Shown: positions 10,086 to 63,563 of the stretch, piece by piece
Numbering within the stretch: position 1 is the stretch's first letter
Layout: each line of letters opens with the position of its first letter
NCBI GenBank assembly: GCA_965112635.1
Contig: OZ218778.1
Span: 1,845,807 to 1,909,806, forward strand
Direction of reading: 5' to 3'
DNA: 64,000 bases
DNA from: an uncultured bacterium
GTDB taxonomy: Bacteria > Oederibacteriota > Oederibacteriia > Oederibacteriales > Oederibacteriaceae
Made by a program: the position numbers and the translations under genes
The notes under the pieces: generated by a model
What the model saw: only the letters and a program-made list of their open reading frames with translations
Database searches by the model: none
Told to the model about the DNA's origin: nothing

Positions 10086-10191
10086 GAATCATTAACTTAT
10101 CTCAGAGCCAAAAACGGTAATAATATCTATATATTTGACAATTAAAATTTGGATAGGTAGACTTTCAACCAAATGGTGAGGATAAGTAAAT

Positions 10192-12192: not shown

Positions 12193-12295
12193 CCATCCGT
12201 GAGTAAGTCTGTTTTCCTGACGCAAGAATTCCTAGAGTAGATTGGTTCTTTAAATTTGAGTAATTGGTTGCATAAAAACACGGAGGCGAGAAAAA

Positions 12296-37783: not shown

Positions 37784-37912
37784 GCTTTTTCCCTTTCCGT
37801 AACTTGATAATCGATCCCTAACTCTCTATACTTTAACAGAAAACTATTGTAATCTCATTTGCAGGCACGAACAATACCTGAAGAAAAACCATTGGTAAAA
37901 AAGAAGAAAACC

Positions 37913-40070: not shown

Positions 40071-40820
40071 ATGAAAAATATATTTTGCAGAAGCTTATCA
40101 ATTATCCTGAGTCATTTGCTTCCCACGCATTGCCAGCAATGCCAGAAGATCCTGCGGGCCGCTCCAAACCCCTGTTTTTGTACGGAATGCTGGGGCAGTA
40201 TCAAGGTGGTCCGGAAACCGTTTTGCCAATACTGCGGGAAACCTTTCCCGTCTTCCCCTGGATTGGAGAAAAGCGGTCCCTCGCTGTGTTATTTCTGTAA
40301 GAAGAAAAAACCTTGTTTTGAAAAAGCAAGGGTAGCGGCGTTGTACGAGGGGGTCATGAAAAAAGCCATTCGTCTTTACAAGTTCGAGGATAAAGAAAGG
40401 CTGGCGCGCCCCCTCGCTGTTTTCCTTGAAAAAACCTGGAGGGACGAACCGGAGTTTGCGGGGTGCGAGGGGATCGTGCCCGTTCCTTTGTTTTGGAAAG
40501 TCCGAAAAGAGAGGGGATTTAACTCTGTCCTGCTTTTGGCCCAAGAGACAGGCAGGCTGTTGCGCTTGCCTGTCCTGGGTTACGGCTTGAAGAAAATCAA
40601 GCCCACCCTGCCGCAAAGGGGATTGAAAAGGAAACAGCGGTTGAAAAACATCCAGGGTGTCTTCGCGGCGGGCTCTGAATCCAATAAGATTGTCGGGAAA
40701 AAGATTTTGCTTGTGGACGACCTTTTTACAACTGGCGCCACCGCAGGCGAGTGCAGCATTGTCCTTAAACAAGCCGGAGCAAAACAGGTCTTTGTCTTGA
40801 CCTTGGCCCGGGGAGCCTGA
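40071..40820 (+). CDS. comFC: ComF/GntX-family phosphoribosyltransferase (competence protein ComFC)
   Basis: N-terminal zinc-ribbon Cys motifs CQQCQK..CFCTECW..CQYCGK; C-terminal PRTase motif KKILLVDDLFTTGATAGE. Confidence 0.8.
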   Translation: MKNIFCRSLSIILSHLLPTHCQQCQKILRAAPNPCFCTECWGSIKVVRKPFCQYCGKPFPSSPGLEKSGPSLCYFCKKKKPCFEKARVAALYEGVMKKAIRLYKFEDKERLARPLAVFLEKTWRDEPEFAGCEGIVPVPLFWKVRKERGFNSVLLLAQETGRLLRLPVLGYGLKKIKPTLPQRGLKRKQRLKNIQGVFAAGSESNKIVGKKILLVDDLFTTGATAGECSIVLKQAGAKQVFVLTLARGA

Positions 40821-41486: not shown

Positions 41487-42929
41487 TTGCTTGTTGGGAA
41501 TAAGGCCTTTTTCTTTGGCATAATATTGACTTTATCATTTGGCAAGCTACAATTTGCTCTAATGAATAACCCTTTGCGAAAAAACCCTTTAAAATCTATA
41601 AAAAATAGAAAAGCGGGAGCCGTTTTTTTATCGGTGCCAGTAGTCATTTTGCTGGTTTTGTCTGGTTTTTTGCCCGCATCCTCCGCTGTAAAAAAAGAGC
41701 CGGCCCGTGTTGTCCCTCAAGATAATTTGAACGGCAGTATCATCGGCATTCCCCTGAGCAAGGAAGTCAACGCCACCTATATCAATACCGGGCTTGTCCA
41801 TGGGGCAGAGCCGGGTATGCAATTCGGCGTCTACAGAAACGGTTCTTTGATCGCCGTATTAGAGATCACCATCGTGATGCAAAGGATGTCCGCGGTCAAA
41901 ATCGTACAGATGGAAAAAGGGGAATCGCTCCAAATCGGCGACCAAGTGGCCTTATTGCGCGGCGCTCCCGTCAGGCTTATCCCTAAGCGTAAGCCTGCAG
42001 AAGAAAGGCCCAAGCTTGCTCTGGGTCCGGAGAAACCGCCTGCTTACCTGCCTCAAGGACCGGCCAACGAACGGATCGCCCTACTGGAAAAACGGGTCGA
42101 TGAACTGGAAAAATTGCTGGCCAAGACTTACGCCATGATCCCCCAAGCCGGACCCCAGGAATTGGCAGTTCCGCCCTTGCCCGAGTTTCCGGTGGCCAAT
42201 GCGCCTTCCGCGACCACCCTCGCTTTGAATAATGCTCCTAAGGAAGAAGTCATTGAAGGCCCGCCTACAGCGGAATTAGAGAAGAAAACTGCTAAGCCAA
42301 AGGAAGAAGAGGTCGATCTTTGGAAGGCCGATACCCCTTATGATAAGATCCCGGAGACAGTACCCCAGACCCAGGAAGAAAAATCGCAGGATCTGGCAGA
42401 CACAGACAACGAATGGTCGTGGGGCACTCCTTATCAAAACAAGAAAGTCGGTCCCAAAGTCAGGCTTGACGTGGCCTTGCTGGATTCGGATGGGGATGAG
42501 TATCAGGGAGGGGCCAAGCTGACCGCCCGCTCCAATTTTGTGGACTGCAAAAATTGGGAACTCAAGATCGTGGACCAGGACGGGAAAGCGGTCAGGACCT
42601 ATTCAGGCAAAGACAAGCTTCCCACCGAAGTCGAATGGGACGGAAAAAACACCGCCTCGGAAAAGGTCAAGAACGGGCTTTACGCCTATGTGTTCAAGGC
42701 CGTAAGCATAGCAGGGGACCCAGCCGCTGCGGACGGTGAAATTCCCAGCCGGAACCCCACCCTGCTGGAAGAAAAGGACTGGAAAGCGGATACTCTGTAT
42801 GCTGATAATGCTCCGGGTACGAGTTCTGTTATCAAGGCGAAGCGCAAAGAAGACGTCGATTATCAAAGCCTTGTTTTGAATTCCGGTAAGATTTTATTTG
42901 CCATTGCCCTGCTTTTGTTGGTCCTGTAA
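41487..42929 (+). CDS. Membrane-anchored hypothetical protein with an internal FlgD-Ig-like domain and a C-terminal TM helix
   Basis: N-terminal hydrophobic segment, Pro/Glu/Lys-rich linker, NWELKIVDQDGKAVRTYSGKDKLPTEVEWDGKNTASEKVKNGLYAYVFKAV (same WDG..G.Y motif as the cargo CTDs), then GKILFAIALLLLVL at the extreme C-terminus. Alternative ATG start at 41562. Confidence 0.5.
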   Translation: MLVGNKAFFFGIILTLSFGKLQFALMNNPLRKNPLKSIKNRKAGAVFLSVPVVILLVLSGFLPASSAVKKEPARVVPQDNLNGSIIGIPLSKEVNATYINTGLVHGAEPGMQFGVYRNGSLIAVLEITIVMQRMSAVKIVQMEKGESLQIGDQVALLRGAPVRLIPKRKPAEERPKLALGPEKPPAYLPQGPANERIALLEKRVDELEKLLAKTYAMIPQAGPQELAVPPLPEFPVANAPSATTLALNNAPKEEVIEGPPTAELEKKTAKPKEEEVDLWKADTPYDKIPETVPQTQEEKSQDLADTDNEWSWGTPYQNKKVGPKVRLDVALLDSDGDEYQGGAKLTARSNFVDCKNWELKIVDQDGKAVRTYSGKDKLPTEVEWDGKNTASEKVKNGLYAYVFKAVSIAGDPAAADGEIPSRNPTLLEEKDWKADTLYADNAPGTSSVIKAKRKEDVDYQSLVLNSGKILFAIALLLLVL

Positions 42930-49783: not shown

Positions 49784-51199
49784 TCACTGGTCGACCATTT
49801 CCGTGACTTCGAGGACTTCCGACAAGGTGGTTACGCCGCTCAAAATCTTTTGGACACCGTCTTCGAACATCGTGACCATGCCGTTTTTGATGGATTCCTC
49901 TTTGATCTTGGAAGCCGTCTCTTTTTCCACCACCAGTTTCCTGATACCTTCGTTCATCTCCAGCAATTCCGAAATGACGGTCCGGCCGCGGAATCCAGTA
50001 TTGAAGCAGTTGCGGCATCCCGGAGCATAAAAGATCTTGTGAGGGGTATGGCCAGTCACTAAAAAGGCTTTTTTGTCATCCTCGGTGGGGACCGTCTCTT
50101 TTTTGCAACGCAAACACAATGTCCTGACCAGACGTTGGCTGATGACCGCGCGCAGGGAGCTGGCGATCAGGTAAGGAGGAACTCCCATTTCCACCAGTCG
50201 CACCACGGCCGATGGGGCGTCGTTGGTGTGAATGGTGGAGAAAACCAGGTGGCCGGTCAAAGAGGCCCGAATGGCGATCTCCGCGGTTTCCAGGTCCCTG
50301 ATCTCGCCGACCAAAATGATATCCGGGTCCTGGCGAAGGATGGACCTCAAGGCGTAAGTGAAGTTGAGCCCGATTTCGCTGTGCATCTGTATCTGCGTAA
50401 CGCCTTCGATCTCGTATTCCACGGGATCCTCCACGGTCGTGATGTTCTTAGTGCCCGTGTTGAGGGCCTGCAGGGCGCTATAGAGGGTCGTGGTCTTGCC
50501 GCTGCCCGTAGGGCCGCTCATCAGGATGATGCCATAGGTCTTGCGGATGATCCGCTTCAGGGCGTTCAACATATGAGGATTAAAACCGATATTATCCAAA
50601 CCCACGACCAAAACCCCTTTATCCAAGATACGCAGGACGACTTTTTCCCCGTTGATGGTCGGTGTGACGGCCACCCGGAAGTCTATTTCGCGGTTCTCCA
50701 CTTTGATATGAAAACTGCCGTCCTGGGGCATGCGGCGTTCCATGATATCGAGCTTGGACATGACCTTGATCCTCGAGACAACGCTCGGCGCCAAGGCCAG
50801 CGGCAAGGTCTGCGCGGGCTGCAGGACCCCGTCCACTCGATAGAACACCTTTAAAAATGTTTTGGTCGGGATGATATGGATGTCGCTGGCCCGTCGTAAA
50901 AAGGCTTCCAAAAGGATCAGGTTAACCGACTTGACCACCGTGCTTTTTTCGTTCTCTTCCTGGACCGAGGCGGAAGGCACGGCGAGGTTGTCTATCTCGA
51001 TCCCCAGCCTTTTGGTCAGCGTCACGCCTTTGTCCACCGCCGTGTTCAACATATGCTGGACGATGCTGACCTTGTAATGGTCTTGATATTCCATGAGTTT
51101 TTTCAGGATCTCACCGCGGGAGCCCATGGCCGCTTCAACCGGCCCCTGCAGGATGGCCTGGAGACGGTCCACCGTGTCCATATCCATGGGGTTTTCCAT
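49784..51199 (-). CDS. gspE: Type II secretion / type IV pilus assembly ATPase GspE/PilB family, ATPase and C-terminal Zn-finger portion
   Basis: Walker A GPTGSGKTTTLYS, Asp box, Walker B, His box, tetracysteine CLRCKK...CRNC. The N-terminal GSPII_E_N domain is missing from this ORF and found in the overlapping upstream ORF 51135..51509. Confidence 0.8.
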   Translation of the reverse strand: MENPMDMDTVDRLQAILQGPVEAAMGSRGEILKKLMEYQDHYKVSIVQHMLNTAVDKGVTLTKRLGIEIDNLAVPSASVQEENEKSTVVKSVNLILLEAFLRRASDIHIIPTKTFLKVFYRVDGVLQPAQTLPLALAPSVVSRIKVMSKLDIMERRMPQDGSFHIKVENREIDFRVAVTPTINGEKVVLRILDKGVLVVGLDNIGFNPHMLNALKRIIRKTYGIILMSGPTGSGKTTTLYSALQALNTGTKNITTVEDPVEYEIEGVTQIQMHSEIGLNFTYALRSILRQDPDIILVGEIRDLETAEIAIRASLTGHLVFSTIHTNDAPSAVVRLVEMGVPPYLIASSLRAVISQRLVRTLCLRCKKETVPTEDDKKAFLVTGHTPHKIFYAPGCRNCFNTGFRGRTVISELLEMNEGIRKLVVEKETASKIKEESIKNGMVTMFEDGVQKILSGVTTLSEVLEVTEMVDQ

Positions 51200-51509
51200 G
51201 GCTGACTATGGTGGTATTGTTCTTTTTCTCTATGGGGATCAACACCTTGCTGGAGGCCATATCCTGGGGGACCATGACCACGAGCTCCGGTTCCGGGGAC
51301 AGGTTCTCCACGTCCAGGAAGGTGATCCCCATCGTGGATGCCCTTAATTTAAGCAGCTGCAACTCCTCCAGAAGTCCCAGATGGAGCAAAGCTTCACCAA
51401 AGGGAACTTTTTGTTCTTCCTCGTAATGGTGGACTTCCTCGAGTTGCTGGGAGGTCAGGATTTTCCTGTGGATTATCTCGTTTTGCAGGGCCAGGTCCGC
51501 GGGTTTCAA
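51135..51509 (-). pseudogene. GspE/PilB N-terminal (T2SSE_N) domain fragment, out of frame with the ATPase body
   Basis: LTSQQLEEVHHYEEEQKVPFGEALLHLGLLEELQLLKL...VLIPIEKKNNTTIV matches the N1 domain; the tail HGKPHGYGHGGPSPGHPAGAG is the wrong-frame read of MENPMDMDTVDRLQ. Confidence 0.6.
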
Positions 51510-51662
51510 GAAACAATCTCCTTTTAATTAGAAGGGTGCTAAAAAAGTTCTCCACACTGGACTTTTTCAGATTTATTGAATTGTAAAGCATCGCCAATCC
51601 CTGCGGATTTGCGATGTAACAGGCTGCTAAATGACCCTCTATTAGGGTTTTTCAGCAGCCTG

Positions 51663-52583
51663 TTAGAAATCAACGGTCAAAGAAAAGCGATGGGCCTCGC
51701 CTAAACTGGCATAAGGCACAAAGGCGTAATCAAAATGATAATACATCAAACCCAGTAAAAGGGAATAGCCAAAACCCGTCGTGAACATGAAAGGCAGGGA
51801 GGTCTGCTCGATCAAGCCGAGCCTGACTGCCAGGTCCTGCGCGCCCCAACGGGAGTTGTATTCCAATCCCAGATGGATCCCCAAATCCTGGCCAATGAAA
51901 TCATAGGAGGTTTCAGCGGAGGCCAGAATATTGCGGGGTTGTTTTGTTTCTTCCTGCTGGCCGCCGATGTTTTCCATGAGTTCTCCCAAGGCGAACTTTT
52001 TAGCGATCCCTATCCTCAACAGCAAAGGCAGGGAATATCCGCCGAGCTCGGACCCGAGATTCTGCAGGGTCACGCCCAAGGAAGTTGCTTCGGCAAAAGG
52101 CCGGATGATGCCTCCCACATCAAAAGCGAAGCCGCTAAATCCCGCTCCCACAAAATCTTCGTGCAGCAGTTTAGCCGTGATGCCAGCGTGGAAGATCTTG
52201 GAAAAGGTCGTGCCATAACTTAATTCGCCGAACAAGGCTGAGAAATTGAGGCTGTCCGCGCTGGGCACGAACATGCCCGGCAAAGGGAAGGACGGGTCCG
52301 TGGGCGTCATTTCATCGGCTTTGGAAACAGGGGAGGACCCCAGACGATTAACGCAAATGCTGAGGCCGCTATGGTTGGAAAGGGGCAGGGCATAGGCCGC
52401 GCTGTCAAAACTGGTGCCCAGAAACCAGTTGATATGGGTGAAAGAAAGTTCCTGGAAGGACAGGTCGCCGAGGCCGGCCGGATTCCAATAGGTGGACAAG
52501 GTGCCGCTGGCCACGGCGCAATAGGCGTCCCCCAGACTGGACGGCCGGGAACCGGTGGCTATCAAAAACTCTTCGCCAGCCAC
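51663..52583 (-). CDS. FadL/TodX/PorV-family outer-membrane beta-barrel (cargo-cluster paralog); true N-terminus probably lies upstream (~52667)
   Basis: GSRPSSLGDAYCAVASGTLSTYWNPAGL N-motif; C-terminal ...HRFSLTVDF. The in-frame upstream sequence encodes a signal peptide (KSQAIAFLILFSILTHPLNSFAAG) with no canonical start codon. Confidence 0.65.
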   Translation of the reverse strand: MAGEEFLIATGSRPSSLGDAYCAVASGTLSTYWNPAGLGDLSFQELSFTHINWFLGTSFDSAAYALPLSNHSGLSICVNRLGSSPVSKADEMTPTDPSFPLPGMFVPSADSLNFSALFGELSYGTTFSKIFHAGITAKLLHEDFVGAGFSGFAFDVGGIIRPFAEATSLGVTLQNLGSELGGYSLPLLLRIGIAKKFALGELMENIGGQQEETKQPRNILASAETSYDFIGQDLGIHLGLEYNSRWGAQDLAVRLGLIEQTSLPFMFTTGFGYSLLLGLMYYHFDYAFVPYASLGEAHRFSLTVDF

Positions 52584-52780
52584 TGTGCCTGCCGCGAATG
52601 AATTCAGGGGATGCGTCAGAATAGAAAAAAGGATAAGGAATGCGATGGCTTGAGATTTTTGTGTCGTAGGGCTAACCTCCTAAAATATCGGGTCACTATC
52701 GGCAGAGAACCCAGGTATGGCTAGAGAATAATATTATACTACTGGTAAGAGAAGACCTGACCCAGGTTCACCATCATTCT

Positions 52781-53725
52781 TTAGAAGCTCGCTCCCAGGG
52801 ATATTCTTTGGGCATCACCCAGCTGGTCCATAGGCACAAAAGCGTAATCCAGGGCATATGCGCTGCTGCCGATTTCCAGGGCAAGCCCCACCCCGCAGCT
52901 CAGCAGCAGGTAGCTGCTGGTGGACTTGGCTATACCGCCGCGCAAGGCCAGGATGGTGCTGCCCATCTTAGGGGCCCATTCCAGGCCCAAATGAAACCCA
53001 TAGTCCTGGCTGTTCACCAGGTCGGTCAGGTCCAGGCTGGCCAGAATATCTTTGGCCGCCGTCTTATTCTCCGGGGCTAGGGCCAGCAGCTCCTCAATAT
53101 CCGTATAGCTCATCCTTTTGGCTATTCCGGCCCTGGCCATGAGGGGAAACGCAAACCCGTCCAATCCCGTGCTCATATTCTGCACAACCAGACCGGCTAT
53201 ATCCGTATCCGATAGTCTGACCTGCGCTCCCAGATCTCCTGCAAACCCGGTTGCGCTGTCGTCCAGCAGGTTTTCCTGGATACATTTGACATTGGCGCCG
53301 ACATTGAGCATGGGCAGCAGGCCCCAGCCAAACCCTATTCCGCCCATGATAGACCCTACACTGACCGTCTGGTTTGCAGGAGAGTATTGGCCGGACAAGG
53401 GGTTATCAGGGCTAGGCAATGTTTCATTGGTGACCGTGATGTCCGGGATACCCAGACGGCTTACAAACAGGCTTAACCCACTCTTTTTGCCTATGTTGAC
53501 GGCATAAGCCACAGTATCTAGGGAGATATTCTGCATCCACATCAGGTGGGTCAGGGAGATATCCTGGTATTGGAGTCTAGCCAGGCCAGCCGGGTTCCAA
53601 AAAGGGGCGAGAGCGCCGGTGACCACGGCTGTGTAGGCCTCAGCCATACCGCTGGGACGGGAACCGACCCCCAGCAACAGCTCATCGCCCGCGGTCTCTC
53701 CGGCCCCAAAGCAGTGGCTCACCAA
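52781..53725 (-). CDS. FadL/TodX/PorV-family outer-membrane beta-barrel (second paralog); true N-terminus probably lies upstream (~53785)
   Basis: GSRPSGMAEAYTAVVTGALAPFWNPAGL; C-terminal ...QRISLGASF. In-frame upstream RHYRIDKIITLICLCSLCLVSHCFGAG is a signal peptide lacking an ATG/GTG/TTG start. Confidence 0.65.
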   Translation of the reverse strand: MVSHCFGAGETAGDELLLGVGSRPSGMAEAYTAVVTGALAPFWNPAGLARLQYQDISLTHLMWMQNISLDTVAYAVNIGKKSGLSLFVSRLGIPDITVTNETLPSPDNPLSGQYSPANQTVSVGSIMGGIGFGWGLLPMLNVGANVKCIQENLLDDSATGFAGDLGAQVRLSDTDIAGLVVQNMSTGLDGFAFPLMARAGIAKRMSYTDIEELLALAPENKTAAKDILASLDLTDLVNSQDYGFHLGLEWAPKMGSTILALRGGIAKSTSSYLLLSCGVGLALEIGSSAYALDYAFVPMDQLGDAQRISLGASF

Positions 53726-53754
53726 ACACAGGGAACACAGGCAGATAAGAGTGA

Positions 53755-55992
53755 TTATCTTATCAATACGATAGTGCCGCGTGATGTCTGGCCTCCTCCT
53801 GAGACTAGGTAAAAATACACGCCTGGAGCGACTGCCTGACCGTTGTCATTGGTACCGTCCCAGGCGGCGTAGGTGGTGCTGGTGGCTATGCTTTTGACCA
53901 GCAGGGCTGACATGGTCCGTATCTCAATGGTCGAGCCAGCCGGGATATTGGCGAATTTCAGCTCATGGTTCAGGGCTGTTTTGACCCTAAAAGGATTGGG
54001 ATAGACCACCAGGCTGCCGATGCTCACCAGAGCCTTGTTGCTGGTCAGGGGGGAGTAGGGGGTTATCTGGCTGAGGATATCGTTGTAACTCATGCTAAAA
54101 GTGTTTGAAATGAACACCCCGGTTGGGTCATTGCTGTTGACCTTGGCTACAAGATTTTTGCTGACCGTGCTGTTGGGATTGACGTTGGCGATGGTCCAGC
54201 TATACAGGCCCGGCCCAAGCACGCTATATCCGCTGTCAGCGGAAACAAAGGTCATGGTGTTGGGCAGGGTGTCCCAGATAAGGACATTTTGGGCGGGACC
54301 GCCCCTGTTCTGACAGGAAAGGGTCCAGGTCACCTGGTCACCCTGGTTTGCTTTGGGAACATTGGAGGATTTGGCCAGGGTAAAGCTGGCCGGAAGAGGA
54401 GTTGGAGTATTGGTTGGAGTATAGGTGGAGGTAAAGGTATATGTGTTGGTAAAGGTCGGGCCCGCCGTGGACTCACCGGAATATTTGGTCAGGAAGCCCT
54501 GATTATCTAGGCCTTTGACCGTGTAGTAGTAAAAGGTACTTGTACAGGCATTAGTGGCGGTGGAGTCGGTATAAGTAGTGCCACCCACTAAAGAACCGTT
54601 GATCTGTGCATAGCCAGTTCCCTCGGTCGTACTACGGTAAACATTGTAGCCTGAGATGCCGAAGGTGGAGATGGGGGGAGCAGACCAGGTGAGAGATACA
54701 GTAGAAGGACAAGTAATGGTGGCAACCAGACCAGAGGGAGGAACCAAGGTGCCCATGGCATTATAGAAGTTGATGCGGCCGTAGCCCAGGTACTGATTCC
54801 AGCCATTAGCATCATAGGCATGATCGGCGGCATCGACCTTATCCGCGGTTTTGGTGATGCGGGTGGAGACTTCATCATAGGACACGCCGTTGGACATTAG
54901 GACAGCGGCCAGGGCACAAACATAGGGACACGACATGGATGTGCCGCCCCAGTTTGCGTATGCGGAAGGTCCTCCGATTTCAGTGGTCAAATCGCCTCCC
55001 GGGGCAGCGCATATGACATAAGAGCTATAGGTGGAATAGGTTGCCCATTCATCATGGCTTCCCGAGGCGGCTATAGCGAAAGCTATGCCATCTGAGGCAG
55101 GATAAATGAGTTCATAGGTTCCGCTATCCCCTGACGCGGCCATTGCAATATGATGGTCGGTGGAATAGGCATTGCTTATGGCTGTATCAACGCCGGAAGC
55201 GCTCACAAAACCCCAGCTGCAATTAAAGACCTGCGCGCCGTGCTGGGAGGCCCAGTCGATTCCCGCGATAGCGTTGGCCGCTGTCGCGTCCGTCCAATTG
55301 GTCGTGATTTTTACAGGCATGATCAGGCAATTCCAAGCCATGCCCGCTATACCCGTACTATTATTAACTTCTGCTCCCAGTAGTCCTGAGATCTCAGTGC
55401 CATGACCATGGATATCCGTAGTATCAGAACTATTGGAGATCACATTCCAACCCGGGACAATTTTATCCATCAGGTCCACGTGACTGGAATTTATTCCGGA
55501 ATCAATCACAGCAACCACGGTGGAGGTTAACCCTTTGGCCCAGGGCATCATGGCGGGAGTGTTCCAAGCTTTGTCTGTTTGGGTGATAGGAATCGGCCAC
55601 AAGACTCCGCTCTGGTAATAGGTATCGTTGGGAAGGGAGTAGGGGGTATAGGCCGGATGGGCGTAATAATTAGGATAGGCGTTTTTGATCTTAATATGTT
55701 TTTTCGCCTTCCCAGCATAGTCCAGAACATTTTTACCATGGGGTATTTTTAGGTGATAGATATCCAATCTGCCCAGTTTTTTTATAACTTCACAGCCTAA
55801 TTCTTTGGCAATGGCACGCGCTTCTGATTCGGGGACTTTTCCTTTTTCAAATTCAATTATTATCTCCCCTTCCACGTAATCAGGTTTTTCTCCGGCATAA
55901 AGGGGGTGTAATAAAAAGGGGATTATCAAGAAAACAGCCAAAAAAATATACGATATTATTATTCCCAATAGTATGTATTTTTTCATTGGCAA
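53755..55992 (-). CDS. Secreted subtilisin-like serine protease (S8) with Fn3/DUF11-like domains, TxT linker and FlgD-Ig/CTD-like C-terminus
   Basis: Catalytic triad contexts VAVIDSGINSSHVDL (Asp), HGHGTEISGLLGA (His), GTSMSCPYV (Ser); N-terminal propeptide; TFTNTYTFTSTYTPTNTPTP linker; C-terminus VVYPNPFRVK..STIEIRTMSALLVKSI..AWDGTNDNGQAVAPGVYFYLV. Confidence 0.85.
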   Translation of the reverse strand: MPMKKYILLGIIISYIFLAVFLIIPFLLHPLYAGEKPDYVEGEIIIEFEKGKVPESEARAIAKELGCEVIKKLGRLDIYHLKIPHGKNVLDYAGKAKKHIKIKNAYPNYYAHPAYTPYSLPNDTYYQSGVLWPIPITQTDKAWNTPAMMPWAKGLTSTVVAVIDSGINSSHVDLMDKIVPGWNVISNSSDTTDIHGHGTEISGLLGAEVNNSTGIAGMAWNCLIMPVKITTNWTDATAANAIAGIDWASQHGAQVFNCSWGFVSASGVDTAISNAYSTDHHIAMAASGDSGTYELIYPASDGIAFAIAASGSHDEWATYSTYSSYVICAAPGGDLTTEIGGPSAYANWGGTSMSCPYVCALAAVLMSNGVSYDEVSTRITKTADKVDAADHAYDANGWNQYLGYGRINFYNAMGTLVPPSGLVATITCPSTVSLTWSAPPISTFGISGYNVYRSTTEGTGYAQINGSLVGGTTYTDSTATNACTSTFYYYTVKGLDNQGFLTKYSGESTAGPTFTNTYTFTSTYTPTNTPTPLPASFTLAKSSNVPKANQGDQVTWTLSCQNRGGPAQNVLIWDTLPNTMTFVSADSGYSVLGPGLYSWTIANVNPNSTVSKNLVAKVNSNDPTGVFISNTFSMSYNDILSQITPYSPLTSNKALVSIGSLVVYPNPFRVKTALNHELKFANIPAGSTIEIRTMSALLVKSIATSTTYAAWDGTNDNGQAVAPGVYFYLVSGGGQTSRGTIVLIR

Positions 55993-56087
55993 TCCTTTGG
56001 AATAGGGAAATTAGAAGATTATCTACGTGTTTCTTCAATTATATGGCAAAAAACGGTTGTATTGGTCTTTGCAAATCCTGGGTATTT

Positions 56088-59000
56088 CTATTTAATTATA
56101 GAAATTTTTAACGGTTTCTTTTGAGTTTGACCGCTGACCTGGGAATCGGCTTCTACAATTCCCACATAAAGACCGGCCGCAGTATTATTGACATCCCAAC
56201 CCAGGGTGGCAATGCCAGGCCCGGCTGCGGGCAAGCTGAGGGTGTTCACCAGCTCTCCCACCACATCATAAATTCTCACGGTCAGGCTGGATTGGTCCTG
56301 CAAAGCGACCTTGAACCATACCTTGTGGTCTGGGGTGGAGAGGTACGGGTTGGGGTAGACCGAAGCGTCCATAAACCCGCTTAAATTGGAGCTTAACACG
56401 GTCACACTTTGCACCAGCACATCGTGCTGGTGGTTGTAGGTCTGATCTATTTTGATCAAATACTCTCCGCTTTGCACATAATTGCCCAAGGCCGTGGTGC
56501 CGTCCCAGGTCAGGCGGGCTTGGTTCAAGGAGCCTAGCCCATCTGCCATTAACTGACCTGTGGAGGAAAAGATGTTTATCCCGATCGTGGTTGTCCCTGT
56601 GGGTTGATTGCTTATCTGCAGTAAATTACTGGTCAACTTCATGCTTCCCAATTGTCCCTGGACGAAATAGCTCTGGTAAAGCTGTTTGACCAACTCTCCG
56701 CTGGTGGTGTAGATACTGACGGTCAAAAGGTCTCCTGACTTGAGCACGGTCAGGGGCATGACGACCGTATTGCCTTGCAGGCCGGGGATATCGGCTTTAA
56801 GCACATATTGCCCGCTGTCCACAAGGTAGCCCAGGTCGCTTTTGCCGTCCCAGGGGACATGGTAGATGATGCCAGCGCTTTTGATCTCGATATCAAAGAG
56901 GCCGGAGTTGGGGTCAAAGATGGTAGAGCCGCTGCCTGAGGAAAGCTGGATACCGCTAAACCCACCCAAGACAAGGACATTACTGAAGGTTTTGACCACT
57001 TCACCGGCTTCGTCGTAGACCTTGAGCTCCAGGTTGGTCATCACCGGGGTATTGGTAGCGGTCACGGTGGCGGTATGGGTCTGGGTTTGGGTTTTGGACG
57101 GAGTCCAGGTCAGGGAAGAAGTCAAGGTCACTGAAGAGGTCACGGTAACAGTGGAGGTCAGAGTGATGGTGGCTGTATTTGTCATTGTTGAAGTAGGCAG
57201 AGGTGTATAGGTGGTAGTGGTCGTGGCTGACTCAGTGAAAGTGTTGGTATTGGTTGAGGTGGGTAAGGGGGTAGGTGTAGTTGTAGGCGTCCCTGTTTCA
57301 GTGGCTGTGTAAGTAAAGGTGAAGGAGTATAAAGTCGTAACCGTGGCCGTAGGGGTCGCTGTATTGGTAGAGGTGCTAGTTAAAGTTATCGTAGCTGTAA
57401 CCGTGATGGTCGCTGTTGATGTTGGTGTATTGGTAGCAGTACTAGTTGGCGAAATGGTATGGGTTGGTGTAGCCGTACCCGTGTTTGTGCTGGTGTAGGT
57501 AGAGGTGGCGGTGCTGGTGTTGGTATTGCTGACGCAGGGAGTCACGTTTTCCACGTACACATCGCCGCAGTAGGGCCTTCCCAGCTCCTCGCCAAGGCCG
57601 GCTCCCATGACCAGGGAATTGGTGCCATTGCCGGTCAGGTCGCCTATAAGCACGTTGCCTCCTCCTACTTCTTCCCCGCCGGTGCCAAGGGAAACTCCGT
57701 AATAACGCATGGTATAGAACGCAGGGTTTGCTATATCCCTTATTTGGCCTTTGCCGGCGGTCCATGGTCCGGTGGTCACCCACACCACGCCATTTTCCCA
57801 AATGTTATTTGGTTTATTAGATAAGGCGCCGCTTCCGGCGTCGCCAGCTCCTATGGCCAGACTCGGCACCGGAGTACAGCTAAAACAAAGTTGGCCGATG
57901 GCCATATTGTCCCCAAAATCAGTAGCATAAGCTCCAAATGCGCCATCGCCGTCTAAGCGGATGTTGAAATTGTTTACAAGATTCAAGTCTACATCATTGC
58001 CATTACCTAAAGGGAAGTTAGTGGGGTTGTCATTGGAATAGACAATATAGACTGAGCCATTTCCATTCCTTCCTTGGCTGTTTTCTCCCGCCGCACCCAT
58101 GGCCAAATCCAGATTGCCATTTAAAAATCCCAGGGCTATCCCATCGCCAAGGTCTCCTGGTGCCGCGGTATAGGGCATTTCCTCTGAGGCATTGGCGCTT
58201 TGGGCCCCATCAAAACGCACGTTACAGTTATTAATATTATTCATGTCCACCATGACCCCCGGTCCGCCACCTATGGGTCCGTAGATCACATAGACTGCAC
58301 CATTGTTTACCTTGCCGTTCGTGGAGGTGCCGGGTGCGCTCATGATGAGATCAGGATGGCCGTCTGTATTACCTCCAGCGCCCCCTCCCACGTCAGCTAT
58401 GGCTACCTGCTGGCCCATGCCAACCTCAGCCGCAGCGCCGACGTAGAGGTGGTCATAGTTATTGACATTATTCAGATCCAGGATTGCGGCTGGACCCGCG
58501 GGCAGAGGGCCGTCTATCGTGAACACTGACCCGGAAATGAATCTGCCGGCAAAATTGTTATAGAAAATATCTCCGATGGCCAGGTCATTGATGTTGTCGC
58601 CGTTGATGTCCCCTATGGCGAATGAGGCGGCTCCGGCGTAATTATTGACGATCTCCACGTTATAGTTGTTAGGATTGGCGAAGCTCACCACTGCCCCAGG
58701 GCCGCCCGCAAACGGTCCGTATTTTACCCATACCGCCCAGCCGCCCCCCATAACCAGGTCGTTCACATTGTCATTGTTCAGATCGCCGATGGCTAAGGCA
58801 AACCCGAGGTTGGCCCCCCCGCCGGGGCCGTCGTAACGGATATCAAAATTATTGAATATATTGAGGTCGGGCTGGTTGGCCATGGTGAGAGGGAAATTGA
58901 CCAGCCCGCCATAGATGATATAGACCGAGCCGCTGCCACCGCCGTTGTAGCTGGCATTGCCATCCCCTATGACCAGGTCAGGGATGCCGTCTCCGTTGAG

Positions 59001-59744
59001 GTCGCCAATGGCCATGCCTCCCTGTGTCCCTTCCTCACCAAAGCTCAAAGTCCAATCGGCTTGCGCACCGACGAACTGCTCGTTGTAGTTGGCTGGAACA
59101 GCCAGATCAACATCCGGATCAATGACCGCCTCACCCTTGGAGCCTACAGAGACCTTTAATTGCAGGTCGATGATGCCGTCCCCTTTTTGCTCGTAGGCCA
59201 GCAACCGGTGGTCCATTTTGGCCACATCAGACCAGCTGAAGTACCCAACGGCTTGTTTATAGCCTCCCCGCACAGGGAACGTCAGAGAGGCTCCCTTCAT
59301 GACAGGCATGACATAGCGGCTTAGACCGGGATAGTCCTTGGCCGGCCGTTCCAATTCTTCGTGGGCGCGAAAGTCCAGGGCCTCTTTTTTCTCCGGCAGG
59401 GCGTACTCTTTGCCCTCATAAACAACGCGGTCCGTGTCGATCTGATAGTAGAGGTGGAGCGTGGTTGTCTTGTCTTTTTGAGTGGGATTTTTGACCCGGA
59501 TAGTTTGTTTTAACGACCGTTTTTGGGTCGCCGGCGATGCTTTGCCCAGGTCGTAGGTCACTTTGACCCTAAGCGCAGGATCATCACAGACAGCACGGAA
59601 ATCTTTAAATCCCTGTTTCAGGTCCTCTCGTAAACCGTTACTTTCGAACCCTGCCCCGGAAACTAGTTGGCTCATGCCGCCTACTAGGAGGAGGGTGCCT
59701 ATGGTCAGGACTATCGTGAAAAAAGTTGTCGACGATTTATGCAA
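56088..59744 (-). CDS. Large cargo protein (1,218 aa): FG-GAP/integrin-alpha-type beta-propeller repeats, TxT stalk, three tandem FlgD-Ig/CTD-like domains
   Basis: FG-GAP motifs GDLNGDGIPDLVIGD, IGDLNNDNVNDLVMGG, IGDINGDNINDLAIGD, GDLTGNGTNSLVMGAG. Stalk NTNTSTATSTYTSTNTGTATPTHTISPTSTATNTPTSTAT... Three C-terminal repeats (LKVYDEAGEVV..WDGKSDLGYLVDSGQYVL; VSIYTTSGELV..WDGTTALGNYVQSGEYLI; YPNPYLS..VRIYDVVGELV..WDVNNTAAGLYVGIV). Confidence 0.75.
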   Translation of the reverse strand: MHKSSTTFFTIVLTIGTLLLVGGMSQLVSGAGFESNGLREDLKQGFKDFRAVCDDPALRVKVTYDLGKASPATQKRSLKQTIRVKNPTQKDKTTTLHLYYQIDTDRVVYEGKEYALPEKKEALDFRAHEELERPAKDYPGLSRYVMPVMKGASLTFPVRGGYKQAVGYFSWSDVAKMDHRLLAYEQKGDGIIDLQLKVSVGSKGEAVIDPDVDLAVPANYNEQFVGAQADWTLSFGEEGTQGGMAIGDLNGDGIPDLVIGDGNASYNGGGSGSVYIIYGGLVNFPLTMANQPDLNIFNNFDIRYDGPGGGANLGFALAIGDLNNDNVNDLVMGGGWAVWVKYGPFAGGPGAVVSFANPNNYNVEIVNNYAGAASFAIGDINGDNINDLAIGDIFYNNFAGRFISGSVFTIDGPLPAGPAAILDLNNVNNYDHLYVGAAAEVGMGQQVAIADVGGGAGGNTDGHPDLIMSAPGTSTNGKVNNGAVYVIYGPIGGGPGVMVDMNNINNCNVRFDGAQSANASEEMPYTAAPGDLGDGIALGFLNGNLDLAMGAAGENSQGRNGNGSVYIVYSNDNPTNFPLGNGNDVDLNLVNNFNIRLDGDGAFGAYATDFGDNMAIGQLCFSCTPVPSLAIGAGDAGSGALSNKPNNIWENGVVWVTTGPWTAGKGQIRDIANPAFYTMRYYGVSLGTGGEEVGGGNVLIGDLTGNGTNSLVMGAGLGEELGRPYCGDVYVENVTPCVSNTNTSTATSTYTSTNTGTATPTHTISPTSTATNTPTSTATITVTATITLTSTSTNTATPTATVTTLYSFTFTYTATETGTPTTTPTPLPTSTNTNTFTESATTTTTYTPLPTSTMTNTATITLTSTVTVTSSVTLTSSLTWTPSKTQTQTHTATVTATNTPVMTNLELKVYDEAGEVVKTFSNVLVLGGFSGIQLSSGSGSTIFDPNSGLFDIEIKSAGIIYHVPWDGKSDLGYLVDSGQYVLKADIPGLQGNTVVMPLTVLKSGDLLTVSIYTTSGELVKQLYQSYFVQGQLGSMKLTSNLLQISNQPTGTTTIGINIFSSTGQLMADGLGSLNQARLTWDGTTALGNYVQSGEYLIKIDQTYNHQHDVLVQSVTVLSSNLSGFMDASVYPNPYLSTPDHKVWFKVALQDQSSLTVRIYDVVGELVNTLSLPAAGPGIATLGWDVNNTAAGLYVGIVEADSQVSGQTQKKPLKISIIK

Positions 59745-59809
59745 CAGTATTTCCCGTGAAACTTTTTTGAAGTTACAAGATCAATGGCCGGCCAAAAAAT
59801 GTTTCATGC

Positions 59810-62800
59810 TTATCTTATAATGATCACTTTGGTTATTGTTCTGTAGTTCGCAGCAGGGGTGTCCGCCTCCACGGCTGCCAGATACAAACCAGCGGACATC
59901 TTCCCCACATTCCAAGGGATGGCCAGCGTCCCGGACCCCGCAGCGGTGAGGGTCATGATCAAGTTGCCTGCCACATTGTAAATATTGATCCTGATGCTGG
60001 CTGCCTGATTGATATCCACCTTGAAATAAATGGTCTGCGACCCCATCTCCCGATAGGGATTGGGATACGCTTTGGCGTCAAACCCGGGGTTGGAGGAGGA
60101 GACCAGCACCGTGATGCTCTTGGAATAGGTCACGATCCTGCCATTGTAAACCTGGTCGGCCTTGAGGATGTATTCGCCGTTCTGCACCAGGTTCCCCAAG
60201 CTGTTAGTGCCGTCCCAAAGGATGCGGCCGGGGGCCAGAGTCCCGTTGCTGTCGGAGAGATAAAGGCCGTTATCCCCCAACGCGCCCACTCCAACCGTCG
60301 TGTTCTGTCCGGGGCCGGTCAGCAATAAGTTATTGGTCAAGGATATGCCTTCCAGCTGGCCCGAAGTGCTATATCCCTGGTAGATCTCCTTCACCAGCTC
60401 TCCGGAAGTCGTGTAAATGTCCACTTTTAGATGGTTGCCCAAGCTGGTCACTATCACGCTGTTCGTAAAGGTAGTGGCTTTGCCGAACTGCGTCACTTGG
60501 GATTTCAGGATATAGTCTCCGGGCTGCACCATGGCTCCCAGATCGTTGGTCCCGTCCCAGGGGATTTGCCATTGGCCTTTTTTGGTGGTCAGGAGGATCT
60601 CCAGCGGCACTCCGGAATCCTCCATCAGGGAGCCCGACCCGCCCAGCGTAATGGTGAGGTCGCTCAAATCGCCGAAGATCGGAACCCATCCAAGGGTCTT
60701 GACCACCTCGCCGTTGGTCGCGTAGATCACCAGGTCCACATTGAGCACAGGCGGCGTTATCGTTGGCGTGCAGGAGCTGGTCAGGGTCTTGCTCGGGGTG
60801 ACCGTATTGGTCCAGGTCAAAGTCTGGGTGGGCGAAAAGGGAGGAGTGGAGGTGTTGCTGGGCGTAGAAGTGCAGCTGGGCGTGGCAGTATTGCTGGCGG
60901 TCCCGGTATTGGTGAAGGTATAGGAAAAGGTCTTGGTCAAAGTGACGGTATTGGTCAAAGAAGAGGTAATGGTCAAAGAGGGGGTCTGGGTGCTGGAAGG
61001 GGTGTTGGTGATTGAGTAAGTGGGTGTGTAGGTGGTCGTGAGAGTGATGGTCTGGGTATTGCTTTGCGTTATCGTGGCCGAGCCTGTAGGGCTGGCGGTC
61101 AAGGTTGCTGTGACGGTGGACGTGTTGATGAAGGTGAAAGTCGCCGAAGCTGAGGGGCTGACGGTCAAGGTTGCCGTGGGGGTGGGAGTGTTGGTGGAGG
61201 TGTAAGTCGCCGAAGCTGAGGGACTGACGGTCAAAGTTGCTGTGGTCGTAAATGTATTGGTGGCCGTATAGGTTCCGGAGGCGGTAGGGCTGGCGGTAAC
61301 CGTGTAGGTATTGGTGGACGTGAAGAGGTTCGTGTAGGTTGCCGTGAGGGATGGGCTGGAGGTCAGGGTAGCTGAACTGGTGGCTGTGTTAGTGGCCGTG
61401 TTGGTGCTGGTGGCAGACGGGCTGACGGTCATCGTGGTCGTGCTGGTGCCTGTAATGGTGGCCGTGCTGGTGTCGGTGGCAGAGGGGCTGACGGTCATCG
61501 TGGCCGTGCTGGTGGCCGTGTTGGTGGCCGTGCGGGTACTGGTGGCAGAGGGGCTGACGGTCATCGTGGCCGTGGCGGTGGCTGTAATGGTGGCCGTGCT
61601 GGTGCTGGTGGCAGAGGGGCTGACGGTCATCGTGGCCGTGGCGGTGGCCGAGTTGGTAGAGGTGCGTGTGCTGGAGGCTGTCGGGCTGACCGTGGCTGTT
61701 GCGCTGGACGTGGAAGTTGAAGTGATGGTGTTGGTAATGGTGGAAGTGCAGGTGCTGCTGCCGGTCGGACTAGCCGTGGCGGTGGTCGTAATCGTGGGTG
61801 TGCATGTTGAAGTGCTGGTAGATGTGGCCGTATCGGTCGCGGTTGAGGTGCTGGTGTTTGTCGGGGCGCAATAAAGAGCCACTTGCGCGTCATTGGATGT
61901 AGTAGCCACTAAACCCGTGCCCTGGAGAGTACCGGTATTGTCGAGAAGGCCGGGACAGGCGGTCGTGGTCACCATAGCGGCAAAACCAAAAGGCGGAACA
62001 GAGGGCAGGTAGTATTTCACCACCACTTCGCAACTATCCACCGCCGAAGCGTCGGCTGGGCCGCTGACCGTGTTGTAGTAGCTGACGCGCAGGTTGTTCA
62101 GGTCAGCCCAGGTCCAGTTCGTATCCGCGGTGGCATCATAATAGCCGTCATCGGTGTTTCCATCAAAAGTTTCGCGCATAATATCAGCGGGAGCTCCGAG
62201 AAAGCCGTTGTTGGTCCCATCCATGGAATAGTTGAAATACAAGGGGTTGACTAATCCGTCGCCACCGTTAACGCCCTGTATTGTGCTGTGGAACATAACT
62301 CCGGCGATCACATATTGGTTCTGGTTCACCACGCCGGAGGGGCCGATTTGGAACCATCCCGTGTTGCCTGGAGTGAGGGTCGCAAAATTGCCGTCAGGGG
62401 CCCCTATGGTATTACCGGGGTTGGTCCATCCTGGAGCGTTAATGACAGAGGAAATATACTGGTCAGCGTAGTTGAAGGTCACCGAACCTGAGAGCGTGAA
62501 TGTCCAGGAGACCAGGTTGGTCACGGGGTTATAGGTTCCCCCGCCTGTCGCTGAAACAAAGGCCATGCCCGCCGGCACGGTGTCATAGACCGTGACCGTG
62601 CTGGCATCTTCGTCAAAGGAACCCATGGTGAAGGTGTAATTGACCGTACCGCCGGTAGCGGAAACGGTCACATCAGAGGCTTTGCTCAGGTCAATGTCAG
62701 AGCCTGGAAAGAAGAAATACTCCCTGTATAAATTCATATCACCGCAGTTATTATTAATAAGCCCCCATGCGCTTGGTCCGTTCCCCAGGTAGGGCACATA

Positions 62801-63373
62801 ACTATAGGGAACATTAGGCGGAGCAGGCATTATATAATACATCCACTGTCCTATGCCTGGCGTATCGTCAATAGGTGTGCCCCAGGTTGAATCATCAAAA
62901 CCCGGCATCATCCAATTGGCAGGCGGAACCGCCAGCTGACCGGCGCAGCCGCCGGGTGGATTTGTGCAACCACAACCTCCGGGAACATACAAAAATTTTA
63001 CGTTGGCGTCAGGATTGCTATAAATGACCACTGTGGGGGCGTCTGAATAATGGACAGTCAAGCGAAAAGTCACGGTCTGCGGACCGGAAGTATTGGGCGG
63101 ATTGTCAACAGCAATGAGGTTTGTTTGGTTGGGAAGGAAGTCGTGCAAGTCAAGAGTACCGTCCGCGGTGGAATAACTAGTGATTTGGTCAAAGTTCCAA
63201 CCAGTTGTCCCGCCATGAATTCCGTTAATGTAAAAATCTGCGTGGTCGTCTCCGGCTATTTCCAGGTCAGCTGAAACAATGTAGGCAATTGTTTGGCGGG
63301 GAACAAACAGTGATAGCAAACATAGAAAAATAATTTTCTTAAAAAATCTTTCTAGTACCTTTTGTTTAAGCAT
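59810..63373 (-). CDS. Large cargo protein (1,187 aa), paralog of 56088..59744: novel N-terminal head, DUF11-like segment, ~350-aa S/T-alternating stalk with 22-aa tandem repeats, three tandem FlgD-Ig/CTD-like domains
   Basis: Signal peptide MLKQKVLERFFKKIIFLCLLSLFVP. TVYDTVPAGMAFVSA (DUF11-like). Stalk ...TMTVSPSATSTSTATITATATA x4. C-terminal triple domain (VIYATNGEVV..WDGTNDLGAMVQPGDYIL; VDIYTTSGELV..WDGTNSLGNLVQNGEYIL; YPNPYREM..INIYNVAGNLI..WNVGKMSAGLYLAAVEA). Confidence 0.75.
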   Translation of the reverse strand: MLKQKVLERFFKKIIFLCLLSLFVPRQTIAYIVSADLEIAGDDHADFYINGIHGGTTGWNFDQITSYSTADGTLDLHDFLPNQTNLIAVDNPPNTSGPQTVTFRLTVHYSDAPTVVIYSNPDANVKFLYVPGGCGCTNPPGGCAGQLAVPPANWMMPGFDDSTWGTPIDDTPGIGQWMYYIMPAPPNVPYSYVPYLGNGPSAWGLINNNCGDMNLYREYFFFPGSDIDLSKASDVTVSATGGTVNYTFTMGSFDEDASTVTVYDTVPAGMAFVSATGGGTYNPVTNLVSWTFTLSGSVTFNYADQYISSVINAPGWTNPGNTIGAPDGNFATLTPGNTGWFQIGPSGVVNQNQYVIAGVMFHSTIQGVNGGDGLVNPLYFNYSMDGTNNGFLGAPADIMRETFDGNTDDGYYDATADTNWTWADLNNLRVSYYNTVSGPADASAVDSCEVVVKYYLPSVPPFGFAAMVTTTACPGLLDNTGTLQGTGLVATTSNDAQVALYCAPTNTSTSTATDTATSTSTSTCTPTITTTATASPTGSSTCTSTITNTITSTSTSSATATVSPTASSTRTSTNSATATATMTVSPSATSTSTATITATATATMTVSPSATSTRTATNTATSTATMTVSPSATDTSTATITGTSTTTMTVSPSATSTNTATNTATSSATLTSSPSLTATYTNLFTSTNTYTVTASPTASGTYTATNTFTTTATLTVSPSASATYTSTNTPTPTATLTVSPSASATFTFINTSTVTATLTASPTGSATITQSNTQTITLTTTYTPTYSITNTPSSTQTPSLTITSSLTNTVTLTKTFSYTFTNTGTASNTATPSCTSTPSNTSTPPFSPTQTLTWTNTVTPSKTLTSSCTPTITPPVLNVDLVIYATNGEVVKTLGWVPIFGDLSDLTITLGGSGSLMEDSGVPLEILLTTKKGQWQIPWDGTNDLGAMVQPGDYILKSQVTQFGKATTFTNSVIVTSLGNHLKVDIYTTSGELVKEIYQGYSTSGQLEGISLTNNLLLTGPGQNTTVGVGALGDNGLYLSDSNGTLAPGRILWDGTNSLGNLVQNGEYILKADQVYNGRIVTYSKSITVLVSSSNPGFDAKAYPNPYREMGSQTIYFKVDINQAASIRINIYNVAGNLIMTLTAAGSGTLAIPWNVGKMSAGLYLAAVEADTPAANYRTITKVIIIR
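61413..61690 (-). repeat. Tandem 66-bp (22-codon) repeats, about 4.2 copies, inside the stalk of 59810..63373
   Basis: Units begin gcagaggggctgacggtcatcgtggccgtg... at 61413, 61479, 61545, 61611 (plus-strand coordinates, antisense to the gene). Confidence 0.8.
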
Positions 63374-63563
63374 ATTTAATACCTATTGTCTTCTCACTAA
63401 ATTTTTATTACAAAATCTCCCTTATATCAGACAATTATAGACATTAAATGTTCCTGTCACAACACGGCGTATCTGATCTAATTTTGAATAATGATTGTAA
63501 TTGAAGTATTTAGGTGTATTCAATGGAGTTACGCCCGAGCCCGGACAGGGAAAGAGGGTTGTC

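Follow-up and report, generated by a model that had tools for sequence, protein, structure and literature searches.

Locus 3 occupies positions 49784 to 63373, on the minus strand, of the 64-kb stretch of DNA analysed here (the window), which belongs to a 2.88-Mb contig of an uncultured bacterium. Six open reading frames (ORFs), the last of them in two fragments, were found at the coordinates given in the original prediction, and the intergenic gaps recomputed from them are likewise the 65, 95, 29, 197, and 153 nt reported there. Domain scans bear out the labels that these genes had received, namely three cargo genes including one for an S8 protease, two FadL/PorV-like barrels, and one ATPase of the type used by type II secretion systems and type IV pili (Table 1). 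Taken together, our analysis suggests that the locus is probably a cargo/anchor cassette of the kind known from the T9SS (type IX secretion system), with the ATPase as an independent gene.

Table 1 Features of locus 3, listed from its upstream end, and the three cassettes of the window (window coordinates; CTD, C-terminal domain).
Feature	Position	Strand	Listed ORF	Remarks
Promoter-like site	63434..63462	-		TTGTGA-17-TATAAT, upstream of cargo 1 within a gap of 190 nt; 10 of 12 positions match; candidate only
Cargo 1	59810..63373	-	59810-63373	1187 aa; signal peptide, N-terminal head with DUF11, Thr-rich stalk of ~350 aa, FlgD_ig-like Ig domains, terminal CTD
CTD of cargo 1	59810..60073	-		Alignment A3
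Cargo 2	56088..59744	-	56088-59744	1218 aa; signal peptide, FG-GAP repeats, Thr-rich stalk, Ig domains, terminal CTD
CTD of cargo 2	56088..56357	-		Alignment A3
Cargo 3, S8 subtilase	53755..55992	-	53755-55992	745 aa; fervidolysin-type prodomain, fn3, DUF11, terminal CTD
CTD of S8 protease	53755..54012	-		Sequence used for the structural model
Barrel 1	52781..53767	-	52781-53725	PorV/PorQ family, NF033709 93.1 bits; listed ORF starts with TTG at 53725
Barrel 2	51663..52667	-	51663-52583	PorV/PorQ family, NF033709 102 bits; listed ORF starts with GTG at 52583
Structured spacer, barrel 2 to ATPase	51510..51662	-		153 nt
Hairpin 1	51665-51617	-		Includes the barrel-2 stop codon; inverted repeat I1
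Hairpin 2	about 51616-51589	-
Hairpin 3	about 51570-51539	-		Ends in UUUUUU, terminator-like
ATPase Shine-Dalgarno	about 51525-51518	-		AAAGGAGA, after the hairpins and followed by the TTG start
PilB/GspE-family ATPase	49784..51509	-	49784-51199 and 51135-51509	MshEN (in the upstream fragment) and T2SSE; frameshifted in the window
Cassette 1	13-7974 and 8031-8426, then 8433-10085	+ for 13-7974		Cargo, then PorV+TPR gene
Cassette 2	37859-39079, then 38968-40059			Cargo, then barrel
Cassette 3	Locus 3	-		Three cargo genes and two barrels

The cargo proteins differ at their N-terminal ends and resemble each other at their C-terminal ends. Cargo 1 scored 36.6 bits for FlgD_ig (PF13860), 27.1 bits for DUF11, and 25.4 bits for Por_Secre_tail (PF18962), and cargo 2 scored 58.7 bits for FG-GAP repeats, 56.7 bits for FlgD_ig, and 25.0 bits for Por_Secre_tail; both proteins pass the FlgD_ig cut-off of 27 and stay below that of Por_Secre_tail, which is also 27. 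Their sequences are 38% identical across 483 residues, which include a portion of the stalk together with the Ig domains and CTD. The third cargo, which probably starts at the ATG at 55986, matches Peptidase_S8 with 114.6 bits; stretches like the catalytic Asp, His, and Ser motifs of a subtilase can be read in its sequence, and its C-terminal end matches the PorZ and PorU models in their CTD regions.

A FlgD_ig/Por_Secre_tail-like domain lies at the extreme C-terminus of all three cargo proteins. The same domain is common to seven proteins of the window and is marked by (Y)PNP close to its start, by G-x-Y close to its end, and by a hydrophobic-K/R terminus, with WDG in several members. A profile built from the window CTDs (alignment A3) matches the CTD of PorU over its full length (E-value 1.2e-7), the CTD of PorZ (1.3e-4), and a T9SS substrate CTD (8glj_D, 0.014), and it also matches the Ig domains of FlgD. 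The AlphaFold2 (AF2) model of the S8-protease CTD (pLDDT 80.6) has PorZ (5m11) as its best Foldseek match, with an E-value of 2.5e-4 and a TMq of 0.72. By the curated type A model TIGR04183 (cut-off 23) the three cargo proteins score 21.8, 22.5, and 17.9 bits, just short of the type; in profile and model matches their CTDs are terminal beta-sandwiches homologous to solved T9SS CTDs. The TIGR04183 cut-off is exceeded, with 25.7 bits, by a further ORF of the window (8031-8426, 131 aa) that consists of a CTD only. The type B model CHU_C (PF13585) hit the S8 protein only, with 16.8 bits against a cut-off of 27.

Both barrels exceed the curated cut-off of 90 bits for the PorV/PorQ family (NCBIfam NF033709), as do two further paralogues in the window (161.5 and 104.8 bits). 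A profile of 20 barrel sequences retrieves PorV of Flavobacterium johnsoniae (6h3i_F, also present in 8gl6) with an E-value of 1.1e-30, against 0.07 for FadL. Consistently, the AF2 model of barrel 2 (pLDDT 91.4) has PorV as its best match in the PDB (8gl6_F, E-value 2.7e-13, TMq 0.72), followed by FadL and TodX; 8gl6 is a T9SS complex in which PorV is bound to the CTD of its substrate RemA. At E-values up to 1e-3, this very large barrel family counts 33,087 cluster representatives (clusters of 50% identity). Within it, the two barrels do not qualify as orthologues of PorV or PorQ proper (NF033710 and NF033711), because their equivalog scores are far below the cut-offs: 16 bits against 250 for PorV and 32-39 against 220 for PorQ, with 42-57 against 325 for PorV2. 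Neither barrel matches PorP/SprF (PF11751) at an E-value of 0.01 or lower. The two barrels are collinear and 36% identical to each other, and the pair looks like a local duplication. A conserved heterotypic pair was also considered and is not supported: 14 tandems from metagenomes each combine a barrel similar to both barrels of the window with one of a more distant type. The second-best structural matches would fit FadL-type channels that take up hydrophobic compounds and have nothing to do with the neighboring cargo. Given the gap between the PorV and FadL profile matches, the rank of PorV as the top fold match, and the frequency with which a CTD gene lies next to such barrels (see below), we regard this as extremely unlikely.

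The window contains three instances of a CTD cargo gene followed by a PorV-like barrel. This arrangement was also seen in metagenomes, in a scan seeded on the barrel family (20 sequences) that yielded 80 PorV-like loci with a total length of 821 kb. A CTD ORF is present in 62 of these loci; it lies on the same strand within 500 nt of the barrel in 55 and immediately upstream of it in 40. ATPase-centred loci with a total of 347 kb, which served as a control, contain a single CTD ORF, and this one adjoins a PorV-like gene. Adjacency of cargo and barrel is thus far beyond chance, and adjacency of the ATPase is not. The cargo proteins adjoining the barrels range from 64 to 2615 aa, some of them clipped by contig ends, and belong to several families; two or three barrels are found in 19 of the 80 loci. 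An S8 gene occurs in none of them, and the idea of the S8 protease as a general PorU-like processing partner of the barrels was rejected. When all neighbors were clustered all-against-all, only one sizeable family recurred apart from the barrels and CTD cargo, a TonB-dependent receptor with CarboxypepD_reg and Plug domains, near PorV-like genes in 13 of the 80 loci (for example at L072 713-3820); no T9SS core or ATPase family recurred. Family membership, structure, and conserved gene order together back the earlier proposal that the cargo genes and FadL/PorV-like barrels make up a surface-display module.

Two other genes of the window that carry related domains deserve description. The first cargo ORF of cassette 1 is open at the window edge and exceeds 2653 aa; nearly all of it is T-x-T-x low complexity (TNTATNTAT...), which gives a GC skew of about -0.39 and an AT skew of about +0.40 across the first 6 kb, and its C-terminal end consists of an Ig-like region followed by a CTD. 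A plus-strand gene at 41487-42929 encodes a 480-aa protein with a FlgD_ig/CHU_C-like domain at residues 353-405. In place of a terminal CTD it has an extension of ~75 residues with a hydrophobic tail (ILFAIALLLLVL), which may represent another mode of anchoring.

The last gene of the locus encodes an ATPase of the PilB/GspE family, with 433.5 bits for T2SSE (PF00437). Its C-terminal 471-aa fragment, the part that was scored, reaches 529.4 bits for GspE (TIGR02533, cut-off 630.25) and 517.8 bits for PilB (TIGR02538, cut-off 675.65). A Walker A motif (GPTGSGKTT) and a CxxC...CxxC tetracysteine motif can be read in the intact translation. The gene had been described as a split gspE, and two fragments are indeed present in the window; the split itself comes down to one extra C at 51204 (GTCAGCC instead of GTAGCC). 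Two further assemblies of this DNA (L001 from ENA and L002 from Logan) lack this C and both encode an intact 574-aa protein (P0061), so the split is an assembly error or a rare variant rather than a property of the locus. Save for this base, the window and the 140-kb ENA contig are identical over 20.6 kb. The barrel-2 protein is on record in the 2.88-Mb NCBI contig and in the two other assemblies, and an exact look-up of the split ATPase ORF gave no match. In agreement with the earlier remark that no other pilus or type II secretion genes were in view, domain scans of nearly all window ORFs of at least 200 aa detected no pilin, platform, or secretin gene, and no prepilin motif was found in any window ORF of at least 60 aa. 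Apart from the ATPase, the sole competence- or pilus-associated family seen in the window is a ComF-like protein (40071-40820, plus strand) with a double zinc ribbon and a phosphoribosyltransferase domain, encoded directly after the barrel of cassette 2.

The ATPase gene is separated from barrel 2 by a strongly structured spacer. Its predicted minimum free energy is -60.2 kcal/mol (z-score -7.55), and none of 200 shuffled sequences folds as well. The spacer was compared with known RNAs including riboswitches, and no credible Rfam match resulted (best E-value 2.7); hairpin 1 was considered as a dispersed repeat and is not repeated in the window. Consensus scans for terminators and promoters returned counts that are not above those of shuffled sequences, with 16 promoter-like sites in the region against 12.7 ± 3.1 in shuffles, and for this reason the promoter-like site upstream of cargo 1 is regarded as a candidate only.

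The neighborhood of the ATPase in relatives is of a different kind from that in the window. One check proposed with the original prediction was whether the ATPase stays next to such clusters in related genomes, and it does not. A T2SSE ATPase is present in none of the 80 PorV-like loci, with a hidden Markov model that recovered every known positive, and no cargo/barrel cassette lies beside the ATPase on any of the 11 contigs that carry its closest homologues among the matches listed (50-58% identity). On these contigs the ATPase stands amid housekeeping genes, and no pilC, gspF, pilin, or secretin gene adjoins it; in L022 and L106, prepilin (N_methyl) genes occur at a distance of about 8 kb. 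The gene directly downstream encodes RNase R in six of the 11 contigs (L019, L020, L022, L103, L105, and L106). The two genes often overlap by 4 nt (ATPase at about 10001-11700; at 4590-6278 in L020), and the pairing is absent from the window. A scan of GTDB genomes with the ATPase returned only matches of 35-43% identity in scattered phyla. We consider the ATPase independent of the cassette because no PorV-like locus contains it, two of the three window cassettes do without it, the folded spacer and its own Shine-Dalgarno sequence set it apart, and its homologues stand in other contexts. It is most likely an unrelated neighbor. Of the two possibilities left open by the original prediction, coincidental synteny and an ATPase that powers export for this system, the former is favored and the latter is not supported.

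The analysis shows to which family and fold the barrels and CTDs belong, and that the gene order, with the cargo before the barrel, is conserved. Judged by sequence and predicted structure, the first five genes probably form a T9SS-like cargo/anchor cassette whose layout is widespread and little described, in a lineage outside the documented range of the T9SS. According to this reading, three surface proteins would be made and exported by the Sec pathway, one with FG-GAP repeats, one S8 protease, and one DUF11 protein. All of them have a functional head and a C-terminal beta-sandwich that would serve as sorting domain, and two have a long Thr-rich stalk. They would cross the outer membrane via a separate translocon, presumably encoded outside the window, and their CTDs may then dock on the PorV/PorQ-family barrels encoded immediately downstream. 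The barrels would retain the cargo on the cell surface, by analogy with PorV-PorU, PorQ-PorZ, and SprF-SprB in Bacteroidota. Of these, the CTDs of PorU and PorZ stay bound to PorV and PorQ without being cleaved, and cargo genes with type B CTDs cluster with those of their cognate PorP/SprF barrels, for which a role as surface anchor of the cargo has been proposed (PMC10202324). The ATPase would be a solitary PilB/GspE-family member with any partners elsewhere, possibly placed beside the cassette by rearrangement in a cassette-crowded genome.

Several observations weigh against this reading and are considered here together with the alternatives they bear on. To begin with the ATPase, no known promoter type was found for it in the spacer, which leaves room for read-through from the barrels. 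Furthermore, three related contigs (L019, L020, and L103, of which L103 is labelled Goldiibacteriota) share the conserved block recX-alaS-ruvX-yceG-hypothetical gene-ATPase-rnr-PorV+TPR-SpoIIE-type phosphatase-his genes, where the second gene downstream of the orthologous ATPase encodes a PorV-like barrel of another subtype with a TPR tail, so that a looser association of ATPase and PorV-like genes may retain some small likelihood. These observations, together with the common direction of the genes, the distance of only 153 nt to barrel 2, and the lack of pilus or type II secretion genes beside this ATPase clade in any context seen, could be taken to mean that the ATPase is part of the module, as a PilB/GspE-type motor that works with an inner-membrane platform encoded elsewhere and energises export or assembly of CTD cargo through the barrels. 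A further point in this direction comes from L017, a metagenome-assembled genome labelled Spirochaetia, where a pair of S8-CTD and PorV-like genes lies 3.9 kb upstream of two such ATPases. However, the PorV+TPR barrel of L019, L020, and L103 comes after rnr, a housekeeping gene, and is not accompanied by CTD cargo, and the L017 pair is separated from the ATPases by unrelated genes, one of them on the opposite strand. By a rough estimate rather than a measured rate, proximity of ATPase and barrel would be expected by chance with four PorV-like genes in 64 kb. The strongly folded spacer with its terminator-like hairpin and the absence of the ATPase from the 80 PorV-like loci and from two window cassettes argue in the same direction. 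The biochemistry fits poorly as well: GspE/PilB ATPases polymerise pilins on an inner-membrane GspF/PilC platform. The T9SS is instead driven by the proton-motive force via PorLM/GldLM motors (PMC8986121, PMC9127263). Collectively, we regard a functional tie between ATPase and cassette, and with it a role in powering export, as very unlikely.

Two of the contexts just mentioned hold further gene pairs. The PorV+TPR gene is followed by a HATPase_c_2-HAMP-SpoIIE phosphatase gene (L019 13797-17560, L020 8426-12139, and L103 13825-17564). Homologues of both genes are present in the window at 8433-14278, 36 kb from the ATPase and with a gene for a HEAT-repeat protein between them, and may represent a regulatory pairing. 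The ATPases of L017 (9977-13448) are two tandem MshEN-T2SSE proteins, and no other pilus genes were found in 21 kb of this locus.

The cassette itself also shows features that do not fit the favored reading easily. All three CTDs of the locus score just under the TIGR04183 or PF18962 cut-offs. In addition, the listed starts of both barrels cut off an in-frame, signal-peptide-like stretch, and no ATG, GTG, or TTG precedes this stretch in either gene. The probable start of barrel 1 is an ATT (53767-53765), from which the gene would share 13 nt with the end of the S8 gene and which leads into the predicted signal peptide MDKIITLICLCSLCLVSHCFG, followed by AGETAG; that of barrel 2 is an ACG (52667-52665), 8 nt after an AGGAGG at 52681-52676, leading into MTQKSQAIAFLILFSILTHPLNSFA and AGTVAG. 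Each of these codons is one base off ATG. A motif-anchored survey of 100 ORFs of the PorV-like family from the window and the fetched loci found these two to be the only ones with no canonical start ahead of the signal peptide, and both start regions are identical in three assemblies. The barrels may thus be weakly expressed or inactive, and the absence of canonical starts points either to low-level or coupled translation or else to early decay. Decay would extend to the whole 3' half of the locus if neither the barrels, deprived of their ATG, nor the ATPase, which carries a frameshift in the 2.88-Mb assembly, were functional any longer in this population. In contrast, the barrel ORFs are intact for more than 320 codons, signal-peptide regions included, an AGGAGG stands ahead of the ACG, the overlap of the ATT with the upstream stop codon fits translational coupling, and the ATPase is intact in two other assemblies, so that its frameshift may be an assembly error. 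Decay is therefore an unlikely explanation.

The favored reading also requires a translocon, and no gene of the T9SS translocon or motor (SprA/Sov, PorK/L/M/N), nor any other core gene such as PorU or PorT, was found among the scanned ORFs of the window. The best named relatives of the SecA encoded by this organism are from candidate division FCPU426 and Firestonebacteria (64-65% identity), followed by Goldbacteria (~62%), which places the organism nearest these groups, and the named barrel homologues are from Elusimicrobiota. FCPU426 has been treated as overlapping Goldbacteria (PMC7031533). The occurrence of the T9SS is given as the Fibrobacteres-Bacteroidetes-Chlorobi superphylum (PMC11205867), and its CTDs as restricted to Bacteroidota (PMC10202324); reviews likewise confine PorV-type barrels to Bacteroidota or to this superphylum. 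In the literature searched, a T9SS is unreported for FCPU426, Firestonebacteria, and Goldbacteria, and the best-ranked papers retrieved for T9SS with Goldbacteria, Firestonebacteria, or Elusimicrobia do not mention one.

The lack of translocon genes among the scanned ORFs raises the possibility that the cassette is self-sufficient and that PorV-family barrels, single or paired, receive and display their cargo with neither an SprA-type translocon nor a PorKLMN motor. The pairs of CTD cargo and PorV barrel would then constitute an outer-membrane display pathway of phyla outside the Fibrobacteres-Chlorobi-Bacteroidetes group, such as FCPU426/Goldbacteria and Elusimicrobiota, in which each barrel is the dedicated receptor and anchor of the neighboring cargo. 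The phylogenetic position of the host, the missing core genes in the 64 kb and among the recurrent neighbor families of the 80 loci, the layout of one cargo with one barrel, and the size of the barrel family would all fit such a modular system. However, the scan for core genes covered 64 kb of a 2.88-Mb contig, and a FadL-type barrel of ~300 aa is too narrow for folded multi-domain proteins. TonB-dependent receptors combined with CarboxypepD_reg are common in Bacteroidota and their relatives, and their presence in 13 of the 80 loci implies that many of these loci may stem from lineages that do have a T9SS. We consider the self-sufficient pathway rather unlikely, and favor a cassette served by a translocon encoded elsewhere.

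As to their significance, these results mean that two parts known from the T9SS, sorting domains and PorV-type barrels, recur as cargo-plus-barrel cassettes in a deep-branching uncultured lineage. If each barrel privately anchors the neighboring cargo, gene order alone would predict displayed surface enzymes and adhesins, and the known range of T9SS-like sorting would be widened. Keeping the ATPase apart from the module avoids a false annotation as a new ATP-driven secretion system.

Comparison with known systems places the components of the locus as follows. The ATPase shares the MshEN N-terminal domain, the T2SSE core, the Walker A motif, and the tetracysteine motif with the PilB/GspE/MshE assembly ATPases. 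It differs from them in scoring under both equivalog cut-offs and in lacking neighboring genes for a platform, pilin, or secretin, both in the window and on the 11 contigs, where RNase R is the recurrent neighbor of its homologues. The SprA-PorV-RemA-CTD complex of F. johnsoniae (8gl6, 6h3i) has barrels of the same fold and sequence family, and the cargo CTDs of the window are related to solved T9SS CTDs. In contrast to the F. johnsoniae system, the window barrels are far under the PorV equivalog cut-off (16 against 250 bits), several barrels are found per 64 kb, each by its own cargo, instead of one shared shuttle, no SprA is present in the window, and the host lies outside Bacteroidota. The PorU-PorV/PorZ-PorQ attachment complex of Porphyromonas gingivalis resembles the locus in that the CTDs of PorU and PorZ are the best solved relatives of the window CTDs and that two barrels stand side by side. 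Unlike this complex, the locus has no PorU-type peptidase or PorZ, its S8 protease is not a general partner of the barrels (0 of 80 loci), and the PorQ equivalog cut-off is missed (32-39 against 220 bits). Pairs of the SprB-SprF type, in which a type B CTD is combined with a PorP/SprF barrel, differ in that the window barrels do not match PorP/SprF and the window CTDs are type-A-like or FlgD_ig-like. With a cargo gene clustered with a dedicated barrel gene, these pairs are the closest described analogue of the gene layout in the window.

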